13,226 nucleotides of DNA from a virus (taxonomy: Duplodnaviria > Heunggongvirae > Uroviricota > Caudoviricetes), in the IMG/VR virus record IMGVR_UViG_2563366869_000004; one strand, written 5' to 3'. Numbering within the stretch: the first letter of the stretch is position 1; the number at the start of each line of letters is the position of its first letter. The notes beneath the pieces are model-generated. The model did no database searches and was not told where the DNA came from. It saw nothing but the letters and a program-made list of their open reading frames with translations. The position numbers were made by a program, and so were the translations under genes. Below, in pieces: positions 2,431-13,226 of this stretch.

Positions 2431-2901
2431 GTTAAGGTTAAATTAATTATAAAAAAATATATTATAATTCCATCTTCGCATTAAATTTTAACCTTTAATC
2501 TCCACACGGAACAAGTTGCATAGGTGACTATATTAAGAAAACTTATAACCACCAAAAAGATTTGCTTTGCAAGCAAAAACAGTGACCATTGACTCTAAGA
2601 AAATTCCGATCTATTGTTAGTGTCATCAAAGTTACTTAACAGTATTCCGAAATGAAAATACAAAGCAAGCTAATTGTCTTATTAAACATTATCATTGCAT
2701 TTATATTATTTGAGCTTTTAGCTCAAAAATTTGGTTTGAGTACATTATTTTAAAGCAAGATAAACAATATCGGGCACTCTAGTTTTTATAATTAACAATT
2801 AAACGCCCATAAAATGTTATTTACTTTTCTTCGCTATTGTCATATCTTAATATAGTGGCTTACGCCACTCTACTTTCATCATATTTTGTACGTTTATGTA
2901 C

Positions 2902-2932
2902 TCGCCATGAAGCTCTTTCATGGCGATTTTTT
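2902..2932 (+). terminator. Rho-independent terminator, plus-strand sense
   Basis: Perfect 10-bp stem tcgccatgaa / ttcatggcga with 5-nt loop gctct, followed directly by tttttt (2927-2932). No A-run on the other side, so it is unidirectional and convergent with tfa. Confidence 0.5.
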
Positions 2933-3018
2933 ATTCTTAATCCAAGAACATACTCCCTACCTATAGAAAAATCACTTTTTGAACAAAAGAATAACGTATT
3001 TAGGTAATCATTACGAAT

Positions 3019-3600
3019 TTACCCTATAGGTGCTACTGGCCATTCAATATCCGGTGCAGTTGTTGTATTAACACGGTTCAGCAACACCCGATACTTCTTC
3101 CAGGCTTCCAGCAACGAGATTTCTTCCTCCGTTGCAATTTCCAGATCTGCAGCATCCTGAAGCGGCGCAATATGCTCACTGGCTACCTGCATCAGGTTGT
3201 TTTTTGTTTCTTCCGCCTCCCGGATCCGGAACAGTTTTTCTGCTTCCGTATCCTTCACCCAGGCTGTGCCGTTCCACTTCTGATATTCCCCTTCCGGCGA
3301 TAACCAGGTGACATTTTCCGGTAACGAGCCAAGTTCAGAAATAAATAACGCGTCGCCGGAAGCCACGTCATAGACGGTTTTTCCCCGATGATCTTCAACG
3401 AGATGCCACGATGCCTCATCACTGTTGAAAACAGCCACAAAGCCAGCCGGAATATCTGGCGGTGCAATATCGGTACTGTTTGCTGGCAGACCTGTATGAG
3501 GCGGAATATATGCGTCACCTTCACCAATAAATTCATTAGTTCCGGCCAGCAGATTATAAATTTTTATGGTCCGTGGTTGTTCACTCATTCTGAATGCCAT
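3019..3600 (-). CDS. tfa: Tail fibre assembly protein Tfa (lambda Tfa-like)
   Basis: 193-aa ORF beginning [48 protein letters not shown], which matches lambda Tfa as I remember it; ends ...IEWPVAPIG. Its ATG overlaps the stop of the upstream stf ORF (TAATG arrangement at 3598-3602). Confidence 0.9.
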
Positions 3601-5297
3601 TATGCAAGCCTCACAATATAGTTAAATGCGATGTTTTTGACGGTGTTTTCCGCGTTACCAGCAGCGTTAACGGTGATGGTGTGTCCATGTGAACCAATCG
3701 CAACGGAGTGCGTATGAGCACCAATACCGACAGTATGCGCGTGTGCACCTGCAGATGCTGCTGTGCCGGACAGTGAGTGGCTATGGTTACCATCTGTACT
3801 GGTATTAGCTAACGCCCCCGTAGACATACCTACTGAGCCTTGTACACCCCAGGTATTTTGACCTGAGCTTGTATAACCATATTGATAAGTATCTTTAAAA
3901 ACACTGGGGTTAAATCGACGGCCATCTCTATGGCTGTGATTACCAGCTGCATTCGTGCTGCCACTTAAACTATGGGTATGCGCACCAGTGTTATTCGTGG
4001 ATTTAGTGCCGTAATCAAACGACGATGTGGTTTTCGTCCCCAAATCAGTACTGGATGCGCTGGCGCTGTGGGTATGCGATTTTATGCCGTCCTGTTCCTG
4101 AGACAATACGGCACGACCACTGGCGGGCTTGCCCTTAATCGTCCAGCCACGCATATCAGGGATCACGCCTGACGGATAAGCGGCTGCAAGTTTCGGGTAG
4201 GCAGATTTGTCAAAAGTCTGCCCCTGCATCAGGGCATAACCAGACGGAACGGTATCTGATGGCCACGGGATTGGTGCGCCGACTGGGTAGCTTTCTGGTG
4301 GAAGATTTTTCGAGGTATAAACTTCTGCCCAGTCTTCCTCAAAACCATAACCGTCTCTTGAAGAACGGTAGAACAGACCACCATTTCTGTAATGCGCCTT
4401 CATCTGCAAGGTCCGGCAACTTCCGACTCCGGTATAGAAGTTAACCAGAATATAGCTGTCGCCAGAGCGGGTGACATTATAAGCGCCTGATTCGGCATTC
4501 CAGGGAACGCCACCATCCGCATCGGCATATGTATCCGTTGCCCTTCTGGCAAAAGCAGCCACATGCGCGGCGGTTAAAGTAATATCTTTGGAACCATCAA
4601 ACTCAACACCAGAAACCCGTCTTGGCGTTTGCAGCTTTGTTGCTGTTAATGCATTACCGTTCAGACTTGCGGACAGTTTGGTTCCAATAACCAGTTCGCC
4701 GGTTGCGTTATCAATAGCAAACGGTCTTAATGTATTCCAGCCACCATAAACATCACCTTGATTGGTAAGCAGCAGGTAAGTTTTAGCGCCATCATTACGC
4801 CATAATGCCCCATACTCCCCACCTATCATTCGAATCTGATTACCACCACGCGCTACAATTTCGTCTGTGGCAAAAAGTTTTTTGCACGACAAGTTATCGT
4901 TAACGATTAATGAATGAGACTCATAAAAACCACGCCCACTCTTAAAATCAAGGATAACGTCCGCCGCGATACATTCAGTCGCCGGATTTGTTGCCCCAAA
5001 CTTATAGGTCGTATCATTAACAACGAGATCAGCACCAGGTGCGGATATTGACAGGCCATCTTCGATAAACGCAAAAACAGGGAAAGCAGCGCCATCAACA
5101 TAGAACACAGAGCGCAAATCATCGCCCTTATTACTCATCATTATTGAGTGGATGGCTCGTTCATTGTTTTGATATTGCCAGAACATTCCATAAGCATAAC
5201 GCCCCCTGTCAGTCCAGCCACCAGGCATAACAAATCCGTTATTCGAGCAACCCACCAGCGATATCAGCAGGAACAGGCAGATCACAGGTTTTTTCAC
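3600..5297 (-). CDS. stf: Side tail fibre protein (lambda Stf-like C-terminal HxH tip domain) with an N-terminal lipoprotein-type signal peptide; probable deletion fusion
   Basis: 565-codon ORF. The C-terminal region ([75 protein letters not shown] ... [29 protein letters not shown]) has the repeated HxH motifs and the ending of lambda Stf. The N-terminus [17 protein letters not shown] is a signal peptide with lipobox LVGC. The start is GTG at 5297 with GGGAGA about 9 nt upstream, in a different frame from and overlapping the 3' end of the Rz-like gene. About 565 aa is short for a lambda-type Stf. Confidence 0.8.
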
Positions 5298-5562
5298 GGC
5301 GGAGAATCTCCCGGTATTCGATTACGGTTTTTTCGGTGCTGGTGTCGATCAGGGAGTTAAGACTGTTGGCATGTTCTGCAACCTGATTGAATCGATTGAA
5401 GTTGAATGCCTGGGTGGCGATTACCTGCCCCAGCATAGAGTTGTCACTTCGCAGAACGTCGTTATCGCTCTGAAGATTACTGGCGTAAGAGCAACTCTTG
5501 ACGAGAGCGACCGAAAGGCCAGCAATAACGACAACGCCTATAAGATCCGGATTAATTTTCAT
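5239..5562 (-). CDS. Rz-like i-spanin (inner-membrane spanin component)
   Basis: ATG at 5560-5562 overlaps the endolysin TGA (ATGA overlap). 107 aa with an N-terminal TM segment ([15 protein letters not shown]) followed by a hydrophilic, probably coiled region; position immediately after the endolysin fits a spanin. The longer six-frame ORF (to 5655) would overlap the endolysin in another frame and is not preferred. Confidence 0.55.
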
Positions 5563-6101
5563 TGCTCCAGCCCCCAGCACGCCAGTGCGCTTTCCTGATC
5601 GCGCCGCTCGACCTGCCCATAACAGCCATTCTTCTGCCCTTTTGTCAGGCGGCAATCACGCCCACCATCTTTTATCCACCAGCGAATCGCCTCGCATGCC
5701 CCCTTACGATCATCGGCATTCAGCCGCTTATAAAACGTCGACGGGAAACACTTACCGGGGCCAATGTTATAGGGACAAAATGACGCTATACCCGCTTTCT
5801 GTGGTTCGGTCAGTGGCACTTTAATATTGCGCTCCACCCATGCCAGCGCCTTATCCCGTTCAATGGCGTTAACCTGGTCGCATTTTTCCTTCGACAGTTT
5901 CATACCGGGAAAAACGGGTTTTCCATCCACCACCGTGGCACCCCGACAGATGGTCCAGATGCCGGAACCATCGCGGTATGCCGTTGTGTGGTTACCTTCT
6001 TTTTCATTCAGAAACTGGTCGAGAATATCAGGCGCAGGCGCACCGACGGCAATCAGTGCCAGAACGGCAGCCGACAGGCCGTATCTGATTTTTACGTTCA
6101 T
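5559..6101 (-). CDS. SAR endolysin (T4-lysozyme-like, GH24)
   Basis: 180-aa ORF, ATG at 6099-6101. N-terminal hydrophobic, Gly/Ala-rich signal-anchor-release-type segment (LSAAVLALIAVGAPAP) followed by the lysozyme catalytic motif E-x8-D-x5-T (EGNHTTAYRDGSGIWTICRGAT). Weak SD. Confidence 0.9.
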   Translation of the reverse strand: MNVKIRYGLSAAVLALIAVGAPAPDILDQFLNEKEGNHTTAYRDGSGIWTICRGATVVDGKPVFPGMKLSKEKCDQVNAIERDKALAWVERNIKVPLTEPQKAGIASFCPYNIGPGKCFPSTFYKRLNADDRKGACEAIRWWIKDGGRDCRLTKGQKNGCYGQVERRDQESALACWGLEQ

Positions 6102-8235: not shown

Positions 8236-8264
8236 TTTTCCTCACATATGTCATATAGTAAAGG

Positions 8265-8294
8265 ATTATATATACCGTTGTTTTGGACGCTCAA
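8265..8294 (-). promoter_or_regulatory. Candidate sigma70 promoter for the lipoprotein pair
   Basis: Minus-sense TTGAGC (-35, plus 8289-8294), 18-nt spacer, TATAAT (-10, plus 8265-8270), about 25 nt upstream of the ATG at 8235. Pattern match only. Confidence 0.35.
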
Positions 8295-8768
8295 ACAGCG
8301 AATCAGATCAAATAAAACGCACATTTGTTAACATTTACACAAAGTCTGCGTGGGATATTCTGAAAGAATATCCATAATGTGGAGAGAATCTATTGAAGTG
8401 CATGGTGCCGGGGGCCTCCCGGTGAATTCAGTACCAGCACCTGAATCCACGATTATCCCATATACCTACTCGCTGATTGCCCCTCCGCACAGGGGGATTC
8501 ACCATGCCAGTTTCTTTTAACAAACTCCCCGCAAACCAGAGAACAGTCAACCGCCTGAATTGTGAAGTATTTAAAAATTTCTCCCGCTAACTGATACCCG
8601 GCTAACAGTCTGGCGTTTTCTTTTTCAGCAACGGGAAAGCAACAACTACCACACCCGCCACCAGCACACCGTCAGCCAGCACTGACATTATCCGGCTGCT
8701 GCAATGCCATTCACAAAAACAGTAAGCAATCACTTTTTACCGTAACAGGTGATAATCCAGATATGTAT

Positions 8769-9122
8769 CTACCCCAGATGAGTAATCCGAAGTTCATCCA
8801 TACCACAGGTCCTGGCTATTCTGTTGTACTCCTGAACAAGAGCAAATAATTCTGAATTAGCAACCATGAACTCATCGCAAACCCTCTGTATAGCATCACT
8901 ATTCAGAATAATAACGTCTCTTCCCGAAAGACGATCAGGAGCACAGAACAAAACTGTCAAACGGCTGAAGGCCTTTGCTCGTGCTGCATTGACTATATCA
9001 ATACGCTGCCTAAGGATGAAACACCCCGACGCCTCATCAATATTCACTCTACCCACACCATATGAATGATAAATATTTAATGCTGAAAAAACCATTAGAC
9101 CGTATAACAAACACTCAATCAA
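8769..9122 (-). CDS. Hypothetical ORF (117 codons) of doubtful coding status
   Basis: Largest ORF between the tRNAs and the lipoprotein genes, same strand as the late operon. Starts with TTG; first in-frame ATG at 9093-9095; no convincing SD; no recognisable motif. Confidence 0.25.
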   Translation of the reverse strand: MIECLLYGLMVFSALNIYHSYGVGRVNIDEASGCFILRQRIDIVNAARAKAFSRLTVLFCAPDRLSGRDVIILNSDAIQRVCDEFMVANSELFALVQEYNRIARTCGMDELRITHLG

Positions 9123-9232
9123 TACTTAACAGAACTTTTATTTTTGACAAACATATAATGTTTTCAACAATATCCTGAGCCAGGTATATTCCAGTATAAG
9201 GCTCTGCCGGAAGGAATCTGGAAGAATGAATA

Positions 9233-9339: not shown

Positions 9340-9357
9340 CCCCCCCCCCCCCCCCCC
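9340..9357. repeat. Homopolymeric C18 tract (G18 in the late transcript) between the two tRNA genes
   Basis: Direct count: one C at 9340 plus 17 C at 9341-9357, flanked by ggggac on the left and gca on the right. Confidence 0.9.
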
Positions 9358-11911: not shown

Positions 11912-11945
11912 CTAAAAGCCACACTAACTAATGAGAGAAGTTGAA

Positions 11946-13226
11946 ATGAAATATCCGACAGGCGTGGAAAACCATGGAGGGAAATTACGTATCTGGTTTG
12001 TTTATAAAGGCGTAAGAGTCAGGGAAAATCTGGGGGTTCCTGACACAGCAAAAAACAGGCGCGTTGCAGGTGAACTACGCGCCTCTGTTTGTTACGCAAT
12101 AAAAACTGGTGTTTTCGACTATGCAAAACAGTTTCCCTCCTCACGCAATCTGGAAAAATTTGGTGAGGCCCGACAAGATTTAACCATAAAAGAACTGGCT
12201 GAAAAATTTCTGGCACTGAAAGAAACTGAAGTCGCCAAAACATCACTCAACACATACCGTGCCGTCATCAAAAATATCCTGAGCATAATCGGTGAAAAAA
12301 ATCTTGCCTCATCGATTAATAAAGAAAAATTACTGGAGGTTCGTAAAGAGTTACTGACTGGATACCAGATCCCCAAAAGTAACTATATTGTTACACAACC
12401 AGGGAGATCGGCTGTAACTGTAAATAATTACATGACAAATCTTAACGCCGTGTTCCAGTTTGGTGTTGATAACGGTTACCTGGCAGATAATCCGTTTAAG
12501 GGGATCTCGCCATTAAAGGAATCAAGAACCATTCCGGATCCTCTTTCGCGGGAAGAATTTATCCGTCTTATCGATGCGTGCAGAAATCAGCAAGCAAAAA
12601 ATTTATGGTGTGTTTCTGTTTATACTGGCGTTCGCCCTGGTGAGCTGTGTGCACTTGGATGGGAGGACATAGATCTGAAAAATGGAACAATGATGATCAG
12701 GAGAAATTTAGCAAAAGACCGTTTCACGGTACCAAAAACACAGGCGGGAACCAATCGGGTCATTCATCTTATTAAGCCAGCAATCGACGCTCTCCGGAGT
12801 CAGATGACATTAACGAGACTGAGCAAAGAGCATATCATTGATGTTCACCTCAGAGAGTATGGCAGAACAGAAAAACATAAATGCACCTTTGTTTTTCAAC
12901 CTGAAGTGTCAGCGAGAGTAAAAAATTATGGTGACCATTTTACCGTTGACTCAATAAGGCAGATGTGGGACGCAGCGATAAAACGTGCCGGACTCCGCCA
13001 TCGAAAATCATATCAGTCGAGACATACTTATGCCTGCTGGTCGCTGACAGCTGGTGCTAACCCGGCATTTATAGCAAACCAGATGGGCCATGCAGATGCG
13101 CAAATGGTATTTCAGGTATACGGAAAATGGATGTCTGAAAACAATAATGCACAGGTAGCTTTGTTAAATACACAGTTAAGCGAGTTTGCCCCAACCATGC
13201 CCCATAACGAAGCAATGAAAAATTAA
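11946..13226 (+). CDS. int: Tyrosine site-specific integrase (lambda-integrase family)
   Basis: Full ORF to TAA at 13224-13226. Catalytic-region motifs near the C-terminus (RHTYACWSL...HADAQMVFQVYGKW). N-terminus MKYPTGVENHGGKLRIWF resembles the prophage IntR/IntS type. Start chosen at ATG 11946 (purine-rich GAGAGAAG upstream); an in-frame ATG at 11931 is the alternative. Confidence 0.9.
   Translation: MKYPTGVENHGGKLRIWFVYKGVRVRENLGVPDTAKNRRVAGELRASVCYAIKTGVFDYAKQFPSSRNLEKFGEARQDLTIKELAEKFLALKETEVAKTSLNTYRAVIKNILSIIGEKNLASSINKEKLLEVRKELLTGYQIPKSNYIVTQPGRSAVTVNNYMTNLNAVFQFGVDNGYLADNPFKGISPLKESRTIPDPLSREEFIRLIDACRNQQAKNLWCVSVYTGVRPGELCALGWEDIDLKNGTMMIRRNLAKDRFTVPKTQAGTNRVIHLIKPAIDALRSQMTLTRLSKEHIIDVHLREYGRTEKHKCTFVFQPEVSARVKNYGDHFTVDSIRQMWDAAIKRAGLRHRKSYQSRHTYACWSLTAGANPAFIANQMGHADAQMVFQVYGKWMSENNNAQVALLNTQLSEFAPTMPHNEAMKN

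Follow-up and report, generated by a model that had tools for sequence, protein, structure and literature searches.

Analysis of the interval 8236-9232 within the window, i.e., the whole 13,226-nt stretch of viral DNA studied here, revealed that it is a cluster of small, separately evolving insert modules and not a single leader. The modules are probably two short protein genes, one member of the already described prophage small RNA (sRNA) family STnc100/PasD, and a sigma-70-like promoter. They are probably strung between the Q antiterminator and tRNA genes on one side and the lysis genes on the other, in a degraded lambdoid prophage with extensive deletions that has lost its immunity and replication regions. 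All features of the interval lie on the minus strand, where the order would run from the PHROG 2873 gene via the DUF3927/TciB-like gene and the STnc100/PasD gene to the sigma-70-like promoter of the TolA-like lipoprotein genes (Table 1). A previous reading of the letters without database searches (the sequence-only reading) had set the limits of the interval at the tRNA and lipoprotein genes, and both limits were correct. It had also seen no convincing gene between them and had called the region mostly non-coding; both statements fell, as two ORFs have family support from Pfam and PHROG and the coding share is about 46% of the 997 bases.

Table 1. Features of the interval 8236-9232 and its surroundings (positions in the window)
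Feature	Position	Strand	Basis or remark
Q	10459-9638	minus	
tR'-like terminator	9557-9538		downstream of Q
orf108, PHROG 2873, function unknown	8769-9095	minus	117-codon ORF of the sequence-only reading shortened to ATG 9095
DUF3927/TciB-like small hydrophobic protein gene	8602-8733	minus	Pfam, PHROG, RefSeq; 43 aa, GTG start
Conserved upstream block, taken as sRNA promoter	8508-8577	minus	conservation; predicted function
Extra TTGACT	8550-8545	minus	
-35 hexamer TTCTCT	8543-8538	minus	TTGTCT or TTGCCT in relatives
-10 hexamer TAAAAG	8519-8514	minus	TG at 8522-8521 (extended -10)
Structured core, STnc100/PasD-family RNA	8400-8507	minus	Rfam, RNAalifold, pair counts
Closing helix P0	8507-8500 with 8407-8400	minus	
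P1	8497-8492 with 8486-8480	minus	CCCC/GGGG hairpin of the sequence-only reading
Pseudoknot	AUCAGCG 8477-8471 with P3 loop UGCUGGU 8439-8433	minus	covariation
P3	8448-8441 with 8431-8424	minus	10-bp stem of the sequence-only reading
P4	8422-8418 with 8412-8408	minus	
RefSeq "hypothetical protein" partial pseudogene	8377-8517	plus	antisense to RNA core
Lineage-specific 3' tail	8346-8399	minus	mosaic breakpoint; fold
Sigma-70-like promoter, TolA-like lipoprotein genes	8265-8294	minus	TTGAGC, 18-nt spacer, TATAAT; consensus match, predicted function
GAGGA ribosome-binding site	8243-8239	minus	then ATG 8235
Holin gene	7066-6794	minus	
Lysozyme gene	6101-5559	minus	

The Rfam family STnc100 (RF02076) matched the minus strand from 8536 to 8346 with 110 bits (E 8.2e-24; gathering score 47 bits) along the whole model (positions 1-206 of 206), which establishes the family membership of this RNA, and no other Rfam family matched the core, even at E values up to 1. 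A tRNA-like or riboswitch/ribozyme identity of the core was considered and found no support, with these other families unmatched and the P4 loop unlike a T-loop by eye. Two GC-rich hairpins had been pointed out before, namely an imperfect 10-bp stem (GGTGAATTCAG, 8421-8431, pairing with CTGAATCCAC, 8441-8450) and a CCCC/GGGGG hairpin (CCCCTCC, 8480-8486, pairing with GGGGGA, 8492-8497). Both pair as described and go beyond chance, corresponding to P3 and P1 of the full-length RF02076 match, and the suggestion that the region could encode a small RNA is borne out, the hairpins being part of a member of the STnc100/PasD family.

Covariation analysis across relatives, proposed as a check along with the hairpins, supports the helices as well. 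The relatives came from E. coli, Shigella, and Salmonella-like phages, about 45 distinct ones overall, with 27 distinct ones in the helix alignment; a pattern scan of genome contigs with 15 specified bases was too loose and gave mostly chance matches from unrelated phyla. Across the 27 relatives, 98.5% of the cells in the four helices were paired, and the covariation score of 0.122 was reached by none of 500 shuffles (0.077) and compares with at most 0.054 when the partners were slid. Since the search pattern used to gather the relatives partly forces the invariance of P0 and P1 in the alignment, the real covariation is confined to P3, where RNAalifold and pair counts revealed compensatory changes, and to the pseudoknot described below. 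All four helices, i.e., the closing helix, the CCCCC/GGGG helix, the long hairpin, and the CCGGG/CCCGG hairpin, are present in the window copy. Folding of the single sequence (8520-8340) was no better than shuffles (z -1.13) and is uninformative alone. The loop and junction nucleotides of the core are nearly invariant.

RefSeq places a partial pseudogene for a "hypothetical protein" antisense to this core, and a 132-aa ORF is likewise annotated antisense to PasD1 of EPEC, so that the conserved block might be read as a plus-strand protein gene. This is hardly credible: the ORF 8350-8520 on the plus strand had no match in Pfam or PHROG, the substitutions are compensatory for RNA pairing, and PasD has been validated as an RNA on the opposite strand (PMC8550237). 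In addition, the core measures 107-129 nt among the relatives, and as these lengths do not differ by multiples of three, neither strand can hold a conserved ORF; the evolution of the region is constrained by RNA pairing. The antisense annotation is probably spurious.

Apart from the helices, a covarying pseudoknot seems to lock the core; this pseudoknot is missing from the Rfam consensus structure, is not shown in the RNAalifold models of one published study on this RNA family, and is intact in the window copy. Its strands covary in at least four independent sequence classes, with the pairs AUCAGC:GCUGAU, CUGGUG:CACCGG, AAUGAC:GUCAUU, and CUGGCU:AGCCAG, and with AAUGAUCGA:UUGAUCAUU in PasD. 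The mean complementary run between both strands was 6.9 within a sequence, compared with 4.4 across classes and 3.8 in shuffles. The RNA would fold into a four-helix core in which the strand following P1 and the loop of P3 form the lock, followed by a variable 3' tail.

Upstream of the core, a block conserved across relatives was taken as the putative sRNA promoter; homology to Stx phages starts at about 8577, its outer end. The block has an extended -10 element (TG plus TAAAAG). The -35 hexamer TTCTCT was found in only 8 of 129 elements, all of the window's lineage, and reflects a G-to-C change private to that lineage, by which the hexamer is weakened. A generic promoter scan did not call the site. 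The measured 5' ends of PasD1 and PasD2 are the first G of GCATGGTG, which predicts a start at G8507 here; by homology with both RNAs, the transcript of the window copy would begin at this base.

Regarding the protein genes, the 117-codon ORF (TTG 9122), which had been regarded as doubtful, proved to be a member of PHROG 2873. Its residues 10-117 matched the profile over positions 1-108 of 108 (E 2.2e-69), with a conserved core of about residues 20/26-117 of the long ORF, and apart from ATG 9095 and TTG 9122, alternative starts are GTG 9056 and GTG 9047. Two further copies from E. coli (L003 and L004), 71-76% identical in DNA, keep the frame for about 92-102 codons with neither insertions nor deletions. 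The dN/dS ratios were 0.25-0.29 in all three pairwise comparisons, compared with about 0.9-1.5 in shifted frames, and changes by codon position amounted to 26/19/40 and 25/23/43, i.e., with an excess at third positions. With such ratios in diverged copies, the ORF is a genuine gene, its product measuring about 92-108 aa. The L003 copy is annotated as a CDS, and AGGAG stands ahead of its GTG start; start signals in the window copy are weak, and RefSeq leaves the gene unannotated in about 1183 genomes. Homologs were found in E. coli only (at least 73% identity), and a tblastn search of phages gave mEp460_ev081 as the sole match. The AlphaFold2 model was poor and unusable (mean pLDDT 45.5).

The second gene encodes a 43-aa membrane peptide, a DUF3927 family protein, as RefSeq labels it in an identical sequence (8733-8602). 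Pfam PF13064 matched residues 2-43 at profile positions 7-53 of 53 with 95.6 bits against a cut-off of 25, and phrog_1470 ("TciB-like") matched with E 7.8e-13; the coding status of both ORFs is established. PADLOC and NCBIfam gave no matches for either protein. Among 115 related elements, 57 have a DUF3927 gene immediately in front of the RNA core.

The lipoprotein genes themselves follow a predicted sigma-70-like promoter, which was the best promoter-like site in the scan (10 of 12 positions). The interval had originally been viewed as a single structured and mostly non-coding leader ahead of the cargo cassette, comparable to the leader of the toxin genes in Stx phages. In favor of a gene-free leader of a Q-dependent late transcript, the interval is located inside the late unit, downstream of Q, the tR'-like terminator, and the tRNA genes, and RefSeq annotates little in it. 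A leader of this kind would hold no independent gene or promoter from the tRNA to the cargo gene; found instead were the two ORFs with family and selection support, an sRNA unit with its own conserved, putative promoter block, and the separate predicted promoter in front of the lipoprotein genes. The sRNA unit is self-contained and recurs in many different contexts, with four or five copies in one locus. Moreover, with immunity and replication regions lost, Q-driven late transcription is doubtful. We therefore regard a single leader as very improbable.

The comparison with Stx phages also turned out to be off by one slot. In the Stx phage 75/02 of Shigella, the homologous RNA core begins 108 nt past the stx1B stop codon, and in Stx2 phages the RNA lies 75 nt downstream of stx2 (PMC12370729). 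With the RNA after and not before the toxin genes, the part of the interval upstream of the RNA matches the place of the toxin genes and not that of their leader, and the interval as a whole is the counterpart of the stxAB slot together with the sRNA that follows stxAB. The sRNA of the window is found in the late region of a lambdoid prophage, on the strand of the late transcript, with Q on one side and the lysis genes on the other, and the synteny is the same in relatives.

The window copy differs from most relatives at the 3' end. In these relatives, the tail consists of a single-stranded seed of roughly 25 nt and a GC-rich terminator with a U-run, and such a GC-rich terminator is present in 120 of 129 related elements. 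Terminator hairpin and U-run together form the Hfq-binding 3' module by which functional relatives are defined. In the window, 26 nt (8399-8374) at the position of the family's seed are predicted to be single-stranded, followed by an AU-rich 9-bp hairpin (8373-8353) which continues into CACGCAGACUUUGUG in place of a U-run. The hairpin region folds at -12.8 kcal/mol, compared with -20.3 and -15.9 kcal/mol for relatives' terminators, and a scan of the minus strand from 8536 to 8236 found no terminator. The window-type tail was identified in 8 of 129 related elements, with the TolA-like gene next in all eight, and its mosaic breakpoint coincides exactly with the end of P0. Decay from a PasD-type or STnc100-type terminator was rejected as its origin; global alignments with five tail types resembled shuffles (z 0.35-0.81). 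A source upstream of the TolA cassette in L004 was also sought, where homology is absent upstream of codon 18. An STnc100 copy adjoining a DUF3927 gene, examined with regard to the Northern-positive STnc100_4 of EDL933, carried a PasD-like tail. The 3' seed/terminator tails of the family are interchangeable modules, and the family resembles a constant platform, made up of promoter and core, to which swappable tails are joined. The window lineage has swapped its tail for an unrelated one without a terminator, in addition to the G-to-C change in its -35 hexamer. One of two outcomes is therefore expected: either a weakly made RNA that ends poorly and runs on into the TolA-like lipoprotein genes, or a decaying copy whose sRNA function is being lost. 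The earlier idea of a decayed gene may apply to the 3' end of the sRNA copy alone.

A relic in which no RNA function remains is a possible, though not the favored, alternative: recombination at the end of the core would have replaced seed and terminator with the region upstream of the TolA cassette, the promoter would have been weakened, and the core would still be intact due to the recency of the event. In its favor are the missing terminator and U-run, the private -35 change, and the uniformity of the tail. Of 5426 complete E. coli genomes, 788 carry this tail, and 772 of these carriers have it with at least 99% identity, fitting a recent spread with no sign of selection. The window's sub-lineage shows two private substitutions, one of them in the otherwise near-invariant P4 loop, and a precedent exists in the terminator-less PasA-3, which was suggested to be a pseudogene (bioRxiv 10.64898/2026.05.13.724894). 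On the other hand, the four helices, the pseudoknot, and the extended -10 (TG plus TAAAAG) are retained, and the module persists in mEp460_ev081, a viable phage, as well as in about 15-22% of complete E. coli genomes.

A role in cis is less likely. Here, transcripts from the sRNA promoter or late transcripts would run through the core into the TolA-like genes, with core and tail as a structured 5' leader in which, for example, the region of ribosome binding, AUGUGAGGA (8247-8239), could be masked by UCUCUCCACAU of the tail (8387-8377). In the minimum-energy fold of 8400-8215, tail and ribosome-binding region are indeed paired, there is no terminator on the minus strand from 8507 to 8235, and the constant TolA-like neighbor of the window-type tail agrees with it. 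However, the fold is not distinguished from shuffles (z -0.41) and its frequency in the ensemble is 0.0008, the tail is without the sequence diversity for testing the pairing, and the sigma-70-like promoter between tail and gene would yield a short leader without the masking sequence. A still bolder proposal, which we consider improbable, is that the 108-nt core is no passive sRNA body but a pseudoknotted RNA domain that works independently, together with a partner such as a protein, a ligand, or RNA polymerase. Prophages would attach exchangeable 3' modules to this domain, in most cases a seed plus a terminator and in the window lineage an entire TolA-like lipoprotein operon, which the domain would here control in cis. 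The near-invariance of loops and junctions, the covarying pseudoknot, mosaic junctions at the end of the closing helix, and up to five copies per late region fit such a domain.

Returning to the cluster of modules, the locus is largely ordinary and leaves the current understanding of these prophages unchanged. For annotation, a stretch with hardly any annotated feature in about 1200 complete E. coli genomes resolves into an unannotated PHROG 2873 gene, a DUF3927 gene, and a known sRNA family. For sRNA biology, the gains are modest, being structural (the pseudoknot) and evolutionary (the swappable tails). The platform-plus-tail view offers a concrete approach to the role of the core, and it also shows how new targets are acquired, or function is lost, by prophage sRNAs in the vicinity of Shiga toxin genes.

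Lambdoid morons are small independent inserts of promoter, gene, and terminator in the late region, e.g., stxAB. The units of the window resemble them in having their own promoter-like sites, in their location between Q/tRNAs and the lysis genes, and in their exchange at sharp boundaries, but one of the units is an RNA gene, and the sRNA copy does not have the closing terminator. With STnc100 the window RNA shares the full model match, the four-helix core, the upstream block, and the place and orientation between Q and the lysis genes. It differs by the unrelated tail (z below 1) without the terminator GCCCCUC...GAGGGGC and U-run, by the lineage-specific change in its -35 hexamer, and by the TolA-like lipoprotein gene directly next to it.

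Members of the STnc100 family include PasD1 and PasD2 of EPEC as well as EcOnc27/sRNA103 of EHEC (E. coli O157:H7, just downstream of stx2B); EcOnc27 was described as an Hfq-binding sRNA downstream of stx2B that overlaps STnc100 (PMC12711010). In EDL933, 11 of 11 STnc100 copies are transcribed, one of them being positive in Northern blots (PMC5331693). PasD1 and PasD2 of EPEC E2348/69, corresponding to EcOnc13 of EHEC, are Hfq-dependent sRNAs validated by RIL-seq and Northern blot; PasD is stabilized by Hfq and forms RIL-seq chimeras via its 3' part (PMC8550237). Both sit between Q and the holin gene, following a DUF3927 gene at a distance of about 40 nt, and the window shows the same arrangement. 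P0, P1, P3, and the pseudoknot are homologous, with the 5' end at the first base of P0, whereas the PasD core is shorter, with a reduced P4 and a different closing strand, and PasD carries a strong terminator along with a seed of its own, CCUUGUGAG. Thus, the window core is of the STnc100 type, while its tail is of neither the STnc100 nor the PasD type; PasD and STnc100 have a common ancestor (bioRxiv 10.64898/2026.05.13.724894). PasA-3, a prophage sRNA whose body is kept, whose intrinsic terminator is missing nearby, and which was read as a possible pseudogene in the same study, resembles the window copy, but belongs to another sRNA family, and in the window copy the loss is accompanied by exchange of the entire tail at a sharp mosaic boundary and by fusion with the downstream cassette. 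Hfq association and pairing with target mRNAs via the 3' tail are known from relatives; for the window copy, whose tail has another sequence, Hfq dependence and targets are putative, and base-pairing, Hfq-associated sRNA action, as in relatives expressed in lysogens, would be the most likely ancestral mode.

Most of the locus can be annotated with standard libraries and belongs to a known family. Modest additions beyond these libraries are that an unannotated small gene shows evidence of coding, that the core of STnc100/PasD has a candidate covarying pseudoknot, and that the family looks like a platform with swappable tails, the window lineage being its terminator-less case. Coordinates are summarized in the table.

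A scan against Rfam revealed a full-length STnc100 match, so that the sequence-only reading was right in supposing that the interval could encode a small RNA. Both hairpins that it had described were found at its positions, with CCCCTCC (8480-8486) pairing with GGGGGA (8492-8497) and GGTGAATTCAG (8421-8431) with CTGAATCCAC (8441-8450); they are helices P1 and P3 of STnc100 and thus more than chance, despite a single-sequence fold no better than that of shuffles (z -1.13). Copies of STnc100 are prophage-borne; strain EDL933 transcribes all 11 of its copies, one of which was detected by Northern blot (PMC5331693). The copy found 75 nt downstream of stx2 (PMC12370729) overlaps the Hfq-binding sRNA EcOnc27/sRNA103 (PMC12711010). 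The EPEC RNAs PasD1 and PasD2 were Northern-confirmed and Hfq-stabilised, and in RIL-seq they ranked among the sRNAs with the most connections (PMC8550237); according to a 2026 preprint, PasD and STnc100 share a common ancestor (bioRxiv 10.64898/2026.05.13.724894). Antisense to the core, RefSeq lists "hypothetical protein" ORFs in many genomes, some as pseudogenes, which look like annotation artefacts spreading via protein-family evidence. Core lengths differed by non-multiples of three, and the antisense ORF was therefore excluded.

The headline of a mostly non-coding leader was wrong, as the interval holds two supported ORFs, and the statement that a convincing gene is missing from every frame failed for both. 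The first encodes a DUF3927 protein (Pfam 95.6 bits, cut-off 25), also matched phrog_1470 ("TciB-like"), and is annotated by RefSeq in identical sequence. The second, a 117-codon ORF, matched phrog_2873 (E 2e-69) with residues 10-117 spanning all 108 profile positions, and therefore ATG 9095 is the likely start of this gene (orf108). Since its close homologs were found only in E. coli, coding constraint was tested on the window copy and two diverged E. coli copies (L003 and L004); in L003, the ORF is annotated as a CDS that starts with GTG behind an AGGAG. The frame was intact over about 92-102 codons without indels at 71-76% DNA identity, dN/dS was 0.25-0.29 in all three pairs (shifted frames c. 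0.9-1.5), and changes by codon position (26/19/40 and 25/23/43) revealed a third-position excess. Profile match and dN/dS refute the earlier view of this ORF as doubtful, and orf108 is a real gene. It had no match in PADLOC, NCBIfam, or Pfam, its structure model was unusable (pLDDT 45), and RefSeq leaves it without annotation in about 1183 genomes.

A pattern scan of viral contigs yielded 120 loci; pooled with the other loci analysed, they comprised about 45 distinct cores. Four helices make up the core, in the order P0 (which closes it), P1 and, after a variable insert, P3 and P4, with 98.5% of helix cells paired (27 distinct sequences). Its covariation score was 0.122 vs 0.077 in shuffles, of which 0/500 reached 0.122, and at most 0.054 with slid partners. 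Compensatory changes were detected in P3 (GC-AU and AU-UA/GC); P0, P1, and P4 were nearly invariant, in P0 and P1 partly imposed by the search pattern. Judged by its sequence variants, the core also appears to hold a pseudoknot: in 44 of 45 variants, the P3 loop was complementary to the 6-9 nt directly after P1 (8439-8433 with 8477-8471 in the window), and the partners switched jointly by class (AUCAGC:GCUGAU, CUGGUG:CACCGG, AAUGAC:GUCAUU, CUGGCU:AGCCAG, AAUGAUCGA:UUGAUCAUU in PasD, and UAUCAGUAC:GUACUGAUA). Complementary runs averaged 6.9 within a sequence, compared with 4.4 between classes and 3.8 after shuffling. This pairing is absent from the structure line of the Rfam STnc100 model, and no pseudoknot is mentioned in the RNAalifold-based preprint (bioRxiv 10.64898/2026.05.13.724894).

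The 3' tails are swappable modules joined precisely at the P0 end. Usually, about 25 single-stranded nucleotides are followed by a GC-rich terminator, identified in 120 of 129 elements, and a U-run. The window tail revealed an AU-rich hairpin (8373-8353) without a U-run, and no terminator-like site was found on the minus strand ahead of the lipoprotein gene. Kinship with other tails was rejected (z below 1). A TolA-like gene follows in all eight elements with this tail type, and only this lineage displays the -35 hexamer TTCTCT instead of TTGTCT. Of the 788 complete E. coli genomes with this tail, 772 have it at 99% identity or more, which therefore leaves no diversity for testing selection. 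Apart from that, E. coli 07-4299 (L004, NZ_CP027462.1) harbors five STnc100-like elements in one prophage late region, four of them in tandem about 260-300 nt apart between its orf108 homolog and an esterase gene, and several viral contigs (e.g., L133, L141, L149, L162, L194) contain a pair of copies spaced by about 468 nt.

The window copy may give an RNA that is expressed only weakly and whose 3' end is ill-defined. Alternatively, the core may have turned into the leader of the lipoprotein operon. In the minimum-energy fold, the tail can pair with the region of ribosome binding, but this fold was no better than shuffles, and between tail and gene stands the best promoter-like site of the region (TTGAGC-18-TATAAT), which shortly precedes the GAGGA and ATG of the lipoprotein gene. 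A relic sRNA copy is also possible, comparable to PasA-3, a likewise terminator-less variant of another prophage sRNA and a possible pseudogene according to the preprint (bioRxiv 10.64898/2026.05.13.724894). The two lipoproteins themselves are paralogous, each combining a signal/lipobox region with a C-terminal TolA domain (Pfam TolA, 82.6 and 54.6 bits), and both match phrog_5772. A decoy with a TolA domain in the periplasm might plausibly interfere with TolA-using colicins or filamentous phages.

Features of the window and of related loci (window positions unless a locus is named)
Feature	Coordinates	Strand	Evidence
Q antiterminator gene	10459-9638	minus	Pfam Antiterm, 185 bits
Short unit directly after Q	9637-9531	minus	Trp_leader-like, 27 bits, below threshold
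tR'-like terminator	9557-9538	minus	
tRNA(CAT)	9494-9419	minus	
tRNA-Arg(TCT)	9309-9233	minus	
Interval under study	9232-8236	minus	
117-codon ORF	9122-8769	minus	phrog_2873
DUF3927 ORF	8733-8602	minus	Pfam
STnc100 match	8536-8346	minus	RF02076, 110 bits (threshold 47), E 8e-24
RNA core	8507-8400	minus	
RNA tail	8399-8346	minus	
Antisense ORF	8377-8517	plus	RefSeq
Promoter-like site	8294-8265	minus	
Two TolA C-terminal-domain lipoprotein genes	8235-7807, 7656-7261	minus	Pfam TolA
P21-type holin gene	7066-6794	minus	
DUF1327 gene	between holin and lysozyme genes	minus	
Lysozyme gene	6101-5559	minus	
Antisense ORF, L006 (EPEC)	2801-3199	minus	RefSeq
STnc100-like elements, L004	~1629-1822, 3565-3696, 3861-4050, 4131-4313, 4391-4561		

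Upstream of Q, only RusA, DUF968, and an integrase gene were identified; therefore, the element is a lambdoid prophage that has undergone heavy deletion and has neither an immunity nor a replication region. The integrase gene (11931-13226, plus strand) adjoins the DUF968-RusA-Q block at 11790-10843 without repressor or replication genes, and the lysis genes (5559-6101) adjoin tail-fibre genes (5297-3600) without head or tail genes between them. Directly after the lysozyme gene come tail-fibre genes and, from the host, an MFS transporter gene. Thus, after this drastic reduction, the insert genes are kept in a remnant that is probably not inducible. The 997 bases were 99.6% identical in phage mEp460_ev081, and 1182 of 5426 complete E. 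coli genomes contained at least 80% of them. The short unit after Q, closed by a strong intrinsic terminator (AACCCGCCACCGAGCGGGTT and a T-run), occupies the position of the PR'-tR' transcript, which in Stx phages gives the regulatory RNA StxS. Between the tRNA genes, a homopolymer at 9340-9357, which reads C18 on the plus and G18 on the transcribed minus strand, varies among otherwise near-identical copies (G18 in the window, G13-C-G3 in E. coli KSC9, G5-C-G3 in mEp460_ev081); this tract may be slippage-prone and possibly G-quadruplex-forming, or could be an assembly-sensitive site. Rfam IS009 also matched the minus strand at 3059-3257, 2370-2445, and 1615-1806 (225, 32, and 41 bits). The strongest match lies wholly within a tail-fibre assembly gene (3600-3019, Pfam Caudo_TAP) and the weak ones are probably pieces of further such genes, so that IS009 looks like coding sequence here.

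The arrangement in the window is that of the PasD loci, where a DUF3927 gene precedes each RNA by about 40 nt and the RNA lies between Q and holin genes, and the sequences align across the upstream block, P0, P1, and P3. Published PasD 5' ends are exactly the first G of GCATGGTG, which by analogy predicts a start at G8507 for the window RNA; its putative promoter would combine a -35 hexamer (8543-8538) with a TG-extended -10 TAAAAG (8519-8514). The core homolog of Shigella phage 75/02 Stx begins 108 nt after stx1B, ahead of the esterase gene; by this comparison, the orf108 and DUF3927 genes of the window occupy the toxin-gene slot, with the RNA coming after it.
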